Origin: Girardia tigrina
Taxonomy: Eukaryota
Assembly: GCA_001938485.1 (NCBI GenBank)
Contig: MQRK01209551.1
Location: forward strand, 19,758-73,121
Length of the DNA: 53,364 nucleotides
Direction: 5' to 3'
Shown here: one piece after another, positions 20,501-26,500 of the stretch
How the letters are laid out: each line of letters starts with the position of its first letter
Numbering within the stretch: the stretch's first letter is position 1
The notes under the pieces: model-generated
The model's database searches: none
The model's input: only the letters and a program-made list of their open reading frames with translations
Told to the model about the DNA's origin: nothing
Position numbers and translations under genes: made by a program

Positions 20501-23500
20501 CTATTATTCTGTACATTCCCGTCTTGCTTTAAAGAAATTGCTGAGCAAAAGGAACTCACAAGACACATCATGAATGTACATATGGCCACGAGGAAGTGGT
20601 TCATTGATATGTGCAATGAAGAACTGCCACAAAAGTTATAAAACTAAGGGATGGCTACAACGACATTTATTAATTGATCATCGAATCCAAGTAGTAAAAA
20701 GAACAGATACAGAACAACATACTGGCCTTTGAACCACGCGAAACATGATATACCAGTGTCTGTCGGTGTAACTGATGAGGACAGTCCAAGAGTAATCCCT
20801 AGTGTGGTACTGAGTTTTCAGCTGGATAATATAATGGACAAGGGAATGTTTCACTGCTCATGTCCCGCTGCACTAAGTGCGTTTATACAGCCAGAAGTCT
20901 CCAGAATCACGGAACGAAGGAATATAACTGGCAATTTCTCAGAAGGAAGCAGAAGCGTGTCCGTTCATTGAAAGCTCGCACTCTTGGATCTGAAGCCGTG
21001 TGAGAGGAGCAGAAAACTTTGTATTTGTCAAATGGTTTCTACCCGGTACAGAGTCTGTGCGCCAATGCTGAGTATTATTTGTAAAACACAGATATCCGTA
21101 ACAGTCGGGGGGGGGGGTGGATTTCAACACGTGTATTTTATACATCATTTATTTAATAATGTATTGTGGAAGGTTTAATTAATTTGGATAAGAAACAACA
21201 TAGCAATTTAATGAAGGAAGAAATACTTCAGCGGCAACAAGAACAATTAATGTCGTTGATCCCGGAGCTCTGGATGTTCGAGCGTGTCAGAGATGGTTTG
21301 GAAAATTTAAAAATGCGATTTCGATCTGAAAAATGAAGAAAGATCTGGTCGACCGTCAACGGTAGACGATGACAGTTTGCGCTTCGTCATGGAAGAGAAT
21401 CCAACAATGACTCTGGAAGAATGAAGCGCTGAAACAGACAATTGGGGAAACAAGCAAAGGCTGTAGAGTGGTATTACATGATTAAGGCGAGAGAAACAAA
21501 ATTCAAAGATTTTCCATTTCAATTTGCTCCTATTGCGTCAAAAAATGAATCTTTTCTGGATAGAGTTATCACGAGAGACGAAAATGGGTGTTAGACGACA
21601 ATCCCAAAATACAAGCTTCAATATCGACTGCAAAACGTAACATTCATGCAAAAAGATATTGTTATGCGCTTGGTGGAGTACAAAAGCTATCGTTCACTAT
21701 GAGTAAGTACAACCTGGTAATACAATTAATGCCGATACGTACGTAGAACAATAACTCGTTTAAATGCAACAATCAAGAAGAAATCGCCTGCAATTGCAAG
21801 TACAGGGTGCGCAAAAAAAACCGACCACTTTAAATTTAACAATTATTTTGCTTTTTTTCACATTGTATTTTTGTTTTTTTGTCACTCTAAATAAATTTAT
21901 ACATATCAATTTATTGTATTTGTTTTTTTAGCATGTCTGAATACAGGAAACAATTATAAAGTTACATCTACAAAGAAAATCCGAGCGCCAAATTACTGAA
22001 TCGTTAGGTGTAGCAAAAACCACAGATCATGATATAATTTCCCGATTCAATGAAAAGATCATCTTCCATTTCCATGATTTCATTTTGCGACTGTGGAACA
22101 TTGGAAAAAGAATTTGAATTTTGATTCGAATCTGGAAATTTAAATCCGGAAGAAATTACTTGAGATCTCTTCAAATTTTGAGAGAACATTTCGTATTTTC
22201 GAATATCGGTATCAGTGACCGATCTTCGGGTATATCTCATTGCTTCTTCAAAATGTTTAGTCGTCAACTCCGGAACTGGATCCGTCAAGTTTTCTACTCT
22301 TCTCTCTTCTGCTGCAATATCAGCTTCAATGCACTCTCTAATCCTTAATTTACAAGCTCGTTGACAAATTTCTGTCAAATCTGTTCCAGAAAATCCTTGA
22401 GTCGATTTAGCAAGAATCTCGAGATTAACATTATCCGCGATTGGAGACTTTCGTAAATTGGCTTTCAAAATTTGTAATCGGGACTTTTCATCTCGTAATG
22501 GAATATAGATCAATTGGTCTAGTCGTCCAGGTCGTAAGATAGCTCCATCAATGATGTCTGGTCTATTGGTTGCTCCAATTATAAATACGTTCTTCTTACT
22601 TAATATTCCATCCATTTCTGTTAACAATTGGTTAATTACTCTGTCTCCATTGGGCATATCAGATGGATCAGTCCGAAACATCCTTCACAAAGACCTTGGA
22701 ATGAAGTCAAGAAAAAAGGCTAAGGGGCAGTTTTTGAACCAAAATGATAAACAAAAGGCCTGGATCGATGCAAAAGGTTAAAAAGAAGATTCGTGGCCGA
22801 AAGACATCGCTCAATCCTCTTCACTCAATGCTCCTCAATACACTCCCACTTAAGCAGCGAATCATCTCCCGCCGGTAACCAGACAATTCGACACATGTTT
22901 TTAATGGGACAAATATTTTATTTCGACATTTTTAAATTTCGATTATTTTTTTTTAATTCAACACTTTTTAATTCGACCAATAACTAAAATGAAATATTTT
23001 CATTATTACTACACATTTTTTGAAACTCGACATTTTCCATAACTATATTTTTGGTTAGACTAGTGAGTTTTTCTGTTTTTTAATATGAAAAAAATCAATT
23101 TTTATGAAACAAATTTTTTAATTCGACACATTTATTAAAAAATAATTAAAATTAAAAATTTAAAGTTAAATCGACAATAAGACGACACAAATTTTTTTTA
23201 ATTCTACACATTTATTAATTCGACACAGTAAAAGTTAATTTTTAACATTTTATTCATTGCAAATTAGCTAGCCAACGCAAGTATGTCAGTTTTTCATCAT
23301 TCGATGCATTCAAATTGTATTCTTGCACAGCCATTGCAATAGCTTCACTCAATGATACATATTTCTTCTTTACAACCTCAGGGCGACCTGACAGAGCATT
23401 TGCCAAAGTCAGTCTGTGACAAGCTATATCTCTTCAAGTCCATCAAGCAAGGTCCAAACACTGGGATGGCTGCATTGAAATATGGTATTAGGAGCATTGT

Positions 23501-26500
23501 GGAAACCTTCACAACAATTTCTGCTCACCAGCAGAATCGAAATGGTTCCAGCATTTTATTGGAAACTGAGGAGCTCTACCAAGAGCACCCTCAATATAAG
23601 TTGATAAGAAATATGTGAGAATTGATTTTTTTCATATTAAAGTGATATTTTTATATTAAATACATATTTTTTCATAAAAATTGATTTTTTTCATATTAAA
23701 TACAGAAAAACTCATTAGTCTAACCAAAAATATCGTTATTGAAAATGTCGAGTTTCAAAAAATGTGTAGTAATAATGAAAATATTTCATTTTAGTTATTG
23801 ATCGAATTAAAAAAAAGTGTTGAACTAAAAAAAACTAATCGAAATTTAAAAATGTCGAAATAAAATATTTGTGTCGAATTGTACGTGTGTCGAATTGTCT
23901 GTGTCGAATTGTCAAGGAACCTCTCCCGCCAGCAAAAACCGAAGCAAATCCTGGTTTGGGCCGGGATCCATTGGTCGAAGGGCAAGACACCTCTTGTGCT
24001 CATTGCCGAAGGAGTCGAAGTTTATGGTCGGGTGTATCGAGAAATGTTGGAAGAAAAAGTTTTTCCGTGGGCAAGAAAGGCGTTTGGAGACGAGCACATT
24101 CTAGCAAGAGGGCGCCCGTCCCACAAGGCTGTTGAAACCGAGGAGTTGATCGAAGCACATTGTCCAGCCAAATGGTGAGTGGCATCCGTGTCGCCCAGAT
24201 TTGAACGTGATGGATTACAGCACTCGGAATCGGCTGGAGGAAAGAGCGTGTTCAAAACCGTGCCAGTCCATACAGTCGTTGAAAAAGAGTCTGAAGAAGG
24301 CATGGGGTGAATTACCGATGAAAATGATTCAGAAAGCGATTGCAAAAGTGTATTGATGCCGATGGCGGCCATTTTGAAAACAAATAAGTTGTATATACCG
24401 TTTTGTTGATATTGTTGTGTTTTGAATGAATTTTGTTGAGTGGAAAACAGAATAATTGTCAAATTTAAAGTGGTCGGTTTTTTTTGCGCAGCCTGCAGAG
24501 AAGGGGTCATATTGCACGGAGACAAGGCGAGACTGCAGGCTTCAAAGAAGACGCTGCAAACAGTTAAGGAATTCAACAGGGATTCTCTGCCTCACGCACC
24601 GTATAGCCGAGATTTAGCGCCTTCAGATTGTCATTTATTTAGGTGTGCCGCGCGTTCTGGCAGTAACAGACTCAGCTCATTTGATGCTCTCACAAATGCC
24701 CTTGACGAATGACAATCTGAAGACTTTCACAATTCAGACAGAGATCAGTTGGTTTAGACGCGAACTTTACAATCAATCTTCAATAAAAAAACGACTCAAT
24801 AATTTACAAACGATTAAATTATAAAAAATAATTCTCAATTGATTTAAAATTAATTTTTAATTTATTTTATTGATAATTTTAATTGTGTAATTTTTAATTA
24901 TTTTCTTTCTTAAATTATAATTTTATTAATTTAATTTCATTAAAATGATTTTTTATTCAATTTAAAATTTAATAATTAAATTTATTTTTTATATATTAAT
25001 CATAAAATAATAATTTATTTATTTACATAAAATAATTTAATATTAAATTAATTAATTGTTTTTTATTAAAAAAATAATTTTAACATTTTTGGAATTTAAT
25101 GTTTTTTTTATTTTGAAAAATGAAAATTATTTAAAAATTTTAGTTGGTATTAAAATAATACTAATAATTTGTAAATACTTTAAAAATATTAAATTAACAT
25201 TTTATTTTATTATTTCATTATTAATATTTTTATTTAATTTATTTTCATTTCATCTCTTATGTTGTTTTTTATTTATTATATGATAAATTATTTTTTATTT
25301 ATTTTAATTTTATATTTATAAAATAATTTAATTTATTTTTGTTTAAAAAATTTATATTTTATTAATTTTATTTATTATTAAATTATTTTTATTTAATTTC
25401 AAATTTAATAATTAAATTTATTTNNNNNNNNNNNNNNNNNNNNNNNNNNNNNNNNNNNNNNNNNNNNNNNNNNAAATAATACTAATAATTTGTAAATGGT
25501 ATACTTTAAAAATATTAAATTAATATTTTATTTTATTATTAATATTTTTATTTAATTTATTTTCATTTTATATTTATAAAATAATTTAATTTATTTTTGT
25601 TTAAAAAATTTATATTTTATTAATTTTATTTATTATTAAATTATTTTTTAATTGTTTATTTTTTATTGTTTATTAAATTTTATTAATAAATAAAATAATT
25701 TTTATGCTTTTACTTAATTGATTAAATTATTTAAATTTTTTGATTTTTATATTATTTTTTAATAAGAAAATTATTTAATCGAATTATTTTTTCAATAAAA
25801 AATAAAATAATTTATAATTAATTGTATTCATTATATTATTAAAATATTTTTGTAGAATTATTTATTCTATTTTTAATATATTATTTTATTTATTAAATTA
25901 GTTATTTTTATACAATTTGAATTTAAATATATTAAAATTAATTTTTATTTAAAATTAATTTTATTTTTTTCAAAAATATTTTTTAATTTAATATAACTTA
26001 TAAAATAATTAGTTAAATTTTAATAATATATTTTTACGTCCGTAAAATAATTTTTATCAATTAAATTATAGTTTATTATTTTATTTTCATTAAAAAAATA
26101 TTAAGAAATGTTATTTTCTTAATTATTTTTTGTTATTTAAAAATAATTATTATTTAATACTTATTTTATAGAAAAATTATTTTTTTCAAATTTTAATTAT
26201 TAATATTTACAAATTTTATTTTTCTATTCGTAAATAATAATTAAGGCTATTAATAATCGAGCACTACTTGAGCTCGGTTAGTGTAGAGAATCTCGAAATC
26301 TCGACATTTCTCAATTGCCTTCGAATAAAACACAATCGATTTATCGAAATCGTTGGCCTTGTAATATTCATTCGCCTTCGATTTAATCTCATCGGCCGTT
26401 TTTCGTGCTAGAGCACGTCTATTCGCTCGCTCTGCCGCGTCTCTCTCGACTTGTCTCACAAACTCATCTTTATCGTTATTAATTACCGTTCTGTCGAATC

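Follow-up and report, generated by a model that had tools for sequence, protein, structure and literature searches.

A fragment of an intronless VCP/p97 paralog within a maT-like Tc1/mariner element of Girardia tigrina: a probable single-copy Pack-TIR

How did 595 bp of VCP/p97 coding sequence come to lie inside the transposase gene of a Tc1/mariner element in Girardia tigrina, and has the piece been mobilised or put to use since? We analyzed a window of 53,364 nucleotides, the whole stretch of contig MQRK01209551.1 under study. We consider it highly probable that the locus is a single-copy Pack-TIR, in which 595 bp matching an intronless VCP paralog took the place of 135 bp of the element, likely via template switching in break repair after the element had inserted, and that the piece then likely decayed neutrally. 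The locus is composed of the following features.

20286..26267, minus strand: predicted intron of a TPR gene, holding the whole transposon nest (TPR matches on both flanking exons; phase-0 GT/AG at 26267 and 20286)
21190..21802, plus strand: left part of an outer Mos1-like mariner remnant, start approximate (HTH_48, E 5.4e-06; translation)
21803..24495, plus strand: maT-like Tc1/mariner host element, a non-functional copy (TIR pair, family alignment)
21803..21854, plus strand: left TIR, starting CAGGG, with TA at 21801-21802 just before it
21933..22055, plus strand: transposase 5' end (first HTH), with a frameshift near the start (HTH_23, HTH_SB; alignment to 14 copies)
22004..22681, minus strand: chimeric frame, open over 225 codons and likely incidental (both ends in antisense transposase DNA)
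22054..22649, minus strand: fragment of VCP/p97 coding sequence acquired from the donor (residues 579-776: D2 C-terminal half, lid and tail), including both 2-bp overlaps (donor identity, junctions)
22648..22873, plus strand: resumption of the transposase, with 24- and 28-bp deletions (comparison with family copies)
22874..23921, no strand assigned: second, nested high-copy TIR element (inverted repeats; 9-bp TSD at 22865-22873 and 23922-23930)
23931..24387, plus strand: remnant of the transposase catalytic domain, with deletions (ORF reading, family alignment)
24444..24495, minus strand: right TIR, followed by CA at 24496-24497, corresponding to a mutated TA TSD
24496..24712, plus strand: right part of the outer mariner remnant, end approximate (frame continues across the TA site)

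The TIRs of the host element (52 nt, 92% complementary) delimit one copy of a family with hundreds of members. At least 358 first-look candidates were found in the assembly; 40 were scored, at 90-96%, and 14 copies other than this one were examined in detail, all 14 of which are preceded by TA. The transposase reading ...HDIISRFNE runs to 22055 and picks up again to the right of the VCP insert, and its 5' end gave HTH_23 and HTH_SB matches below the Pfam cut-off. Relative to the family column majority, the host element carries 52 substitutions over 1041 columns plus several indels; about 11 of the indels are real events, many of them homopolymer slips or common to other copies. These indels, the mutation in its TSD and the second transposon inserted into it mark the host element as dead.

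The outer mariner remnant comes back into frame once the maT-like element is taken out, and a contig of the public run X4 crosses an empty site of the outer mariner's family. The nested element at 22874-23921, which the original prediction had missed, is represented by first-look candidates numbering at least 1399 in DNA and 1757 in protein searches. It is putatively Mutator-like, judging from the length of its TSD and from an internal peptide resembling Mutator-like sequences; one of 11 further copies had both ends in view, and no clear 9-bp duplication was present there. The fragment had been placed in an intron of TTC12. A minus-strand TPR gene with in-phase GT/AG was indeed recovered, which is putatively TTC12-like; an Atlas search returned generic TPR clusters only. 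Among 40 scored candidates for the downstream TPR exon, only the studied window matched.

The minus strand of 22055-22649 encodes GDRVINQ...EDDL and matches VCP/p97 (best PDB E 1.6e-97), with the Pfam domains AAA, AAA_lid_3 and Vps4_C, which bears out the proposal that VCP coding sequence lies inside the transposase. Compared with the complete VCP/p97/Cdc48 AAA+ ATPase, the fragment covers the D2 C-terminal half, the lid and the tail, and lacks N, D1, the D2 Walker A and B motifs and the terminal Tyr. Donor residue positions agree with the predicted retention of sensor-1 and the Arg finger and loss of Walker A/B: the D2 Walker A and Walker B of the donor, at 500 and 557, precede the first captured residue, 579, and the captured part includes residues 604 and 617, which mark the sensor-1 region and the Arg-finger motif. 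A VCP fragment of this composition could not act as an ATPase by itself. The insert contains no intron, native stop, poly(A) or TSD, as had been described, and ends two codons ahead of the donor stop. The open frame at 22681-22004, with both its start and its stop taken from antisense transposase DNA, was likewise recovered.

In 14/14 other copies examined, a GRPR linker of about 135 bp is present where this copy carries 595 bp of antisense VCP. The proposed replacement of the linker could thus be refined: the lost segment spans 135 alignment columns (10.5% of the element), and at 22054-55 and 22648-49 the donor and the element overlap by 2 bp, a pair of overlaps to which simulation gave a chance of 0.03. 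Of the 11 bases immediately beyond the left junction, 8 match, with a chance of 0.002 for one junction that was picked after looking.

The nearest donor is an intact VCP paralog on G000:C205131 (L002/L038), identical at 577/595 positions (97.0%); the next-best candidate reached 568/595, with a match of the same length for L002. The insert was sister to L002 in both the DNA tree and the protein tree. The donor frame is open over 788 codons and intronless, its flanks, VCP coding sequence and the 3' end, do not match the host element, and it lies on a separate 9,144-bp contig. No second VCP match was found on the contig of the studied window. The intron-bearing VCP (C217886) was identical at only 159/209 positions (76%) and is interrupted by a GT intron within the stretch corresponding to the insert; a cDNA of this canonical gene was rejected as the source, given 97% identity for the intronless paralog.

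These data are relevant to the nature of the template. The original prediction had allowed for a cDNA intermediate; the parent search found the nearest parent to be intronless over its 788-codon frame, the outcome that the prediction itself had named as refuting the cDNA idea, and no cDNA step is needed. Because the donor is intronless, DNA and RNA templates look alike in sequence. The same event with RNA or cDNA of the intronless paralog as template, a reverse-transcribed patch at the break, is nevertheless unlikely. It would account for a wholly exonic insert, a donor-type contig occurs in X3, a run guessed to be RNA, and open frames for LTR-retroelement RT and integrase lie near some VCP copies. 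However, poly(A), 3'UTR and TSD are all missing from an insert that stops two codons short, the absence of introns is no sign of RNA when the donor gene lacks them in the genome, and the intron-bearing gene is excluded as donor. More generally, where a genome contains intronless paralogs, the capture of an exon free of introns does not prove that RNA was involved.

The suggested template switching in the course of gap repair is supported by the 135-bp replacement, the 2-bp overlaps and the near-identical parent elsewhere. We infer that the outer mariner would have come first, followed by insertion of the maT-like element at a TA site and then by a break whose gap was filled from the VCP paralog locus; the nested element with the 9-bp TSD cannot be placed in this order relative to the capture. 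Repair may have proceeded through end resection at the break, invasion guided by short homology, and synthesis of about 600 nt with rejoining at a 2-bp overlap. Differences from the family majority suggest a host element older than the insert (52/1041 vs 14/595, 5.0% vs 2.4%, p = 0.009). When only private substitutions are counted, the gap is smaller (41/1041 vs 14/595, 3.9% vs 2.4%, p = 0.12), and this result is therefore also compatible with capture at the time of transposition.

The locus fits an ordinary case of a known kind, the single-copy Pack-TIR. In the sections of Tan et al. 2021 (PMC8277862) drawn on here, Pack-TIRs have 100-5000 bp of internal sequence enclosed by two stretches of a single TIR element whose termini are both preserved, as found here. 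Our parent exceeds the 90% identity given there, is a unique best match (577/595 vs 568/595) with a length ratio within 80-120%, is not flanked by the same TE (donor flanks compared with the host element) and, being intronless, does not make the insert a retroduplicate of a multi-exon parent. Of the gap-filling features, single copy, breakpoint microhomology and a small deletion are present. Capture by animal Tc1/mariners had been thought less often reported, a view not supported by the figures in these sections, where TcMariner elements host 115/370 animal Pack-TIRs. Single-copy cases there share with ours non-TE sequence that splits one TIR element in two, a small internal deletion, 2-bp microhomology, a TcMariner host and an exonic source (13.4% of cases), with medians of 2 bp microhomology, a 224-bp insert and a 4.6% gap; our insert is longer (595 bp) and our gap larger (10.5%), and the host, judging from the VCP tree, is likely a flatworm. 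The same sections report a retrogene, ARF6, captured in MER20, and a donor within about 15 kb in 57% of cases.

Ssk-FB4 of Drosophila, multicopy Pack-TIRs and plant Pack-MULEs also carry host coding sequence in a TIR element; as described in the same sections (PMC8277862), the multicopy elements transposed after capture, and Ssk-FB4 is expressed and under selection. In contrast, the VCP insert exists as one copy, runs antisense to the transposase and changes as expected under neutrality. We found neither the several copies with distinct TSDs of a transposed Pack-TIR or Pack-MULE nor the poly(A), TSD, 3'UTR and intron loss relative to the parent that mark a processed pseudogene or retrocopy. 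Among titles listed in a literature search on mariner capture of host gene fragments, none concerned VCP. The locus is an instructive case of gap-filling capture by an animal TIR element, with donor, deletion, overlaps and decay all readable.

What has happened to the fragment since capture can be read from its 14 private changes in 595 bp, at 22158, 22209, 22215, 22229, 22231, 22253, 22300, 22344, 22345, 22384, 22494, 22522, 22602 and 22604. Eleven are nonsynonymous and three synonymous, as expected from the ratio of sites (461.5 : 132.5; binomial p = 1.0) and different from four paralog pairs (Fisher p 0.0002-0.012), and private changes alter residues that all 9 other paralog copies compared have in common. 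Because 11 N : 3 S matches the neutral expectation, the idea of a protein role for the 225-codon frame was not supported; 14 random substitutions would leave it free of stops with a probability of 0.51. Neither indels nor stops are present in the insert, where about 3 indels would be expected by hand scaling from the host element (chance of none, about 0.05). On this pattern of substitutions, the captured piece has likely been decaying neutrally since capture. It is predicted to be transcribed only within the TPR-gene intron, in the VCP sense direction, and to yield no useful protein.

A functional fragment, serving as an antisense or piRNA source against VCP paralogs or contributing a spliced exon to the TPR gene, is very improbable. 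The open frame free of indels and the shared orientation with the TPR gene are in its favor, as are a private allele at a depth of about 4 in X4, a run guessed to be RNA, and the transcription of at least 30% of Pack-TIRs as chimeras in the sections of PMC8277862 cited above. Against this, the changes are neutral in ratio and alter paralog-invariant residues, the two Walker motifs of D2 are missing, as is the C-terminal Tyr, and the contigs are strandless, so that X4 may represent DNA or intronic pre-mRNA. A more specific version, in which the VCP piece, lying in a transcribed intron within three nested transposons, feeds a piRNA or antisense pathway that tunes the expanded set of intronless VCP retrogenes, likely active in the germline, must be regarded as a long shot. 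If true, a transposon would here be carrying a regulator of a family of core housekeeping ATPases; the fragment would matter more if its small RNAs targeted the VCP family.

Pattern searches allowing 2 mismatches found each junction once in the 1.43-Gb assembly. A search for an element allele without the insert gave one match and no such allele, and no site without the element was found. A 110-base contig of run X1 (21975-22084, 0 differences) spans the left junction, with 30 letters to the right of 22054 against a bridging limit of 31, and a 223-base contig of run X4 (22422-22644, 0 differences) contains 4 private sites; the two runs come from two studies. As the left junction and private alleles recur in contigs of two other public runs, misassembly is disfavored. 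An assembly chimera of a transposon copy and a VCP paralog seems extremely unlikely: the assembly is broken into 255,254 contigs and rich in repeats, and no contig spanning the right junction was seen among the 32 of 2754 pieces listed, but private substitutions, 14 in all, occur along the length of the insert, unexpected if existing loci had been joined, and 21803-24495 is free of N gaps.

A family of VCP-carrying transposons, first suggested by 27 other DNA matches, was rejected: none of the 19 loci compared with the element had transposon flanks, and the remaining 8, which were read for ORFs and VCP matches, were covered by the whole-assembly junction searches. Mobilisation of the insert, as originally proposed, with other copies absent from the assembly, is extremely unlikely, since DNA search counts are lower bounds but each junction occurs once, 0/19 other VCP loci are transposon-flanked, and both the TSD and a TIR end are mutated.

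Animals generally carry one or two copies of VCP. Paralog pairs here gave dN/dS of about 0.06-0.14. At least four diverged intronless VCP lineages are under purifying selection, beside one intron-bearing VCP. A sexual-specific Vcp/p97 transcript is reported in PMC3319590, and the donor family is a candidate ortholog of it. An LTR retroelement as their common carrier was not supported; the groups share sequence only as far as about 100-200 bp beyond the coding sequence. Gag/protease-like ORFs come after VCP at L039, L053 and L056, and RT/integrase ORFs adjoin it at L049/L050. This expanded, conserved intronless family is a better lead than the captured fragment.

The host family itself also deserves comment. 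In the portion of PMC8472432 used here, DD37D/maT elements share with it the CAGGG terminus, the TA target, a length of about 1.3 kb and a DDD-type triad, but their spacing between the second and third Asp is 37 residues, against 45 here (readable in 2/14 copies, L032 and L035). A literature search on DD45D returned no title on transposons. As a side finding, the 45-residue spacing is of more interest than the capture.

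As originally predicted, a Tc1/mariner (maT-like) element with 52-nt terminal inverted repeats carries captured VCP/p97 sequence. Its transposase reading breaks at 22055 and is picked up again at 22648, and the minus-strand DNA between the halves codes for the C-terminal part of VCP/p97, with the Pfam domains AAA, AAA_lid_3 and Vps4_C and p97 structure matches at E about 1e-95. Translation upheld the open 225-codon chimeric frame, both ends of which are antisense transposase DNA. As expected from the predicted loss of catalytic motifs, neither D2 Walker motif is present in the fragment.

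Features of the locus and its relatives
21803-24495: inverted repeat (52 nt) bounding the maT-like element
22874-23921: nested high-copy TIR element, 1048 bp, flanked by a perfect 9-bp TSD; the genome has at least 1400-1750 candidates
23931-24387 in the window, and fetched loci L032:2343-2627 and L035: host transposase family, DDD triad with 45 residues separating the second Asp from the third (maT has about 8 fewer)
L038 (G000:C205131:862-3225), L039, L041, L047/L010/L011, L056 and others: intronless VCP/p97 paralogs, about 775 aa

Besides the VCP fragment, the maT-like element contains a second foreign piece, the nested TIR element, which the original prediction did not include; the maT-like element itself splits, at a TA, an old Mos1-like mariner (HTH_48). 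The right-hand TA copy is now CA, and excising the maT-like element in silico restores the outer frame. The nested element's internal minus-strand peptide (23257-23433), which had no Pfam match, presumably resembles a Mutator transposase C-terminus. Because a minus-strand TPR exon flanks the whole nest on each side (phase 0 joining, GT at 26267, AG at 20286), the VCP piece would be read as intron, in the sense direction. This agrees with the intronic position and orientation originally proposed. The name TTC12 is an assumption from resemblance, a database search with the TPR gene having returned no name. The acceptor at 20286 has no clear pyrimidine tract, and a high-copy repeat with a zinc-finger-like peptide (20490-21100; ~2800 first-look candidates) lies near it in the same predicted intron. 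The stretch 24800-26200 is extremely AT-rich (GC about 5%), with a local duplication across an N gap (25424-25473) that is likely an assembly overlap. Elsewhere in the window, 32353-33776 on the minus strand holds what we take to be Polo-like kinase exons (kinase and polo-box).

A DNA search of the genome with the insert gave 28 matches, the window counted, and these proved to be VCP genes or pieces of them rather than chimeric transposons. The 27 others give no copy number, since several near-identical contigs are probably alleles. The parent search found C205131 closest (577/595); this gene has no introns and an open frame of 788 codons. The absence of an intron from the insert is thus explained by its parent and no longer speaks for a cDNA template. 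In the separate VCP on C217886, introns follow donor residues 110, 174 and 649, the third of them within the captured span, but only 159 of 209 aligned positions are identical to the insert.

Confirming the prediction, the insert has no TSD, poly(A), UTR or native stop, ending two codons short of the donor's. At the left junction the overlap measures 2 bp (22054-55) for the nearest donor and 1 bp for the next paralog group, and at the right it measures 2 bp (22648-49); overlaps of at least 2 bp at both ends arose in 3% of simulated random joins. Just outside the left junction 8 of 11 bases agree (0.2% by chance, in a region picked after looking). From this junction signature, the insert would be a deletion filled by templated synthesis. 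Divergence is 2.4% between the insert and its donor lineage and 5.0% between the host element and its family (p = 0.009); if private changes alone are counted, the host figure falls to 3.9% (p = 0.12 against the insert). On these sequence divergences we favour a capture that came after the transposon insertion; the genome search found no allele without the insert.

That the insert had been mobilised is not borne out: a search of the 1.43 Gb that tolerated two mismatches finds each junction at a single place, and 0 of 19 other VCP loci aligned against the host element have transposon flanks. Misassembly is also unlikely. We compared four sequencing runs as contigs (X1 guessed to be DNA, X3 and X4 RNA). 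A 110-base X1 contig is identical to 21975-22084 and spans the left junction, with only 30 letters on the VCP side, which is at the limit for bridging. The window's letters at 22602 and 22604 are kept by about 82 of X1's depth of 1026, a figure near the 77 of the junction contig. No X1 contig has the window's letter at 22158 or 22494; X1 may hold a slightly different allele, or contigs carrying these letters may have been filtered out. In X4, from another study, a 223-base contig matches 22422-22644 without a difference, including four private sites, and ends 5 bases before the right junction, which is absent from the pieces shown. X3 has a donor-type contig unlike the window at all 13 private sites within its range, and X2 has the donor and ordinary transposon ends, with no junction among 32 of 2754 pieces.

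The insert differs from the donor at 18 positions, 14 of them private to the window relative to nine other full-span paralog copies. The comparison with the parent gave 11 nonsynonymous and 3 synonymous private changes on 461.5 and 132.5 sites, a neutral ratio (binomial p = 1.0); in pairs of VCP paralogs dN/dS is instead about 0.06-0.14 (four pairs compared, Fisher p 0.0002-0.012). The probability of no stop after 14 random changes is 0.51. The insert has no indels and the host element about 11 (chance near 0.05, by rough hand scaling), which counts against neutral decay, an argument that loses weight because the host count includes homopolymer slips and deletions that were inherited. A role as a small-RNA regulator of the VCP family seems very improbable. 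We consider it highly probable that the locus is a real, single-copy, neutrally decaying Pack-TIR.

Tan et al. 2021 (PMC8277862) surveyed 100 animal genomes and report 370 Pack-TIRs, of which 115 lie in TcMariner elements; 98.6% are single-copy, with a median microhomology of 2 bp and 13.4% exonic, and one took up a retrogene. They ascribe animal Pack-TIRs to transposition-independent gap filling, and our locus agrees with each of their Pack-TIR criteria that we checked. We found no report of VCP capture in a search that did not cover that paper's supplementary case list, yet this type of capture is known, so the VCP capture is a new instance, not a new kind.

Of at least 358 first-look genome candidates for the element's 5' end, we scored 40 and retrieved 14 further copies. 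The linker expected from the prediction is present in all 14; in the window a deletion of 135 alignment columns removes it, including the segment encoding GRPR. Against the column majority, the window copy carries 52 differences in 1041 positions (41 private), together with frameshifts and three deletions (24, 28 and 32 bp); of 13 other listed indels, one is an artefact of nested-element excision and one of end-trimming. This copy is dead. Like maT as described in PMC8472432, the family begins CAGGG; because its second-to-third Asp spacing is 45 (2 of 14 copies with a readable motif) and not 37, we call it maT-like. Judged by title, no transposon paper on a DD45D spacing was found, and the family merits separate study.

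The protein tree had 25 rows, 8 from this genome and 17 chosen from 120 listed relatives. It places fragment and donor as sisters (98/90) and unites the intronless copies in one clade (100/99), joined on a long branch by two unnamed 770-aa database proteins (100/99), so the intronless family predates this genome. That grouping is nested in a clade with Schistosoma, Trichobilharzia, Schistocephalus and Echinococcus sequences (99/98), which points to a flatworm as the likely host. By its sequence relationships the intronless lineage is old, and it likely arose as a retrogene. Flank comparison and a DNA tree suggest at least four distinct intronless lineages (dS 0.18-0.34, dN/dS about 0.06-0.14), whose identity with the intron-bearing VCP is 86% across the exon they have in common; truncated or stop-bearing copies also occur. 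By analogy with a Vcp/p97 homolog whose expression in Schmidtea mediterranea is reported to be limited to sexual animals (PMC3319590), they are possibly a germline retrogene family. This expanded family merits separate study.

Gag/protease-like ORFs lie directly downstream of one paralog group (L039:8382-9883, L053, L056), and RT/RNase H/integrase ORFs abut a 5'-truncated copy (L049/L050); no common carrier element was demonstrated at these loci. A VCP fragment on a 1.1-kb contig (L045, G000:C105594), at 50% GC against about 28-30% elsewhere and outside the host's VCP clades, is likely contamination. More than 100 further AAA-ATPase matches at 30-50% identity (e.g. G000:C219876, C215965, C250366, C249566), many having open frames near 400 aa, the long ones perhaps including N runs, and some in tandem on one contig, are possibly an expanded or mobile-element-borne AAA family.
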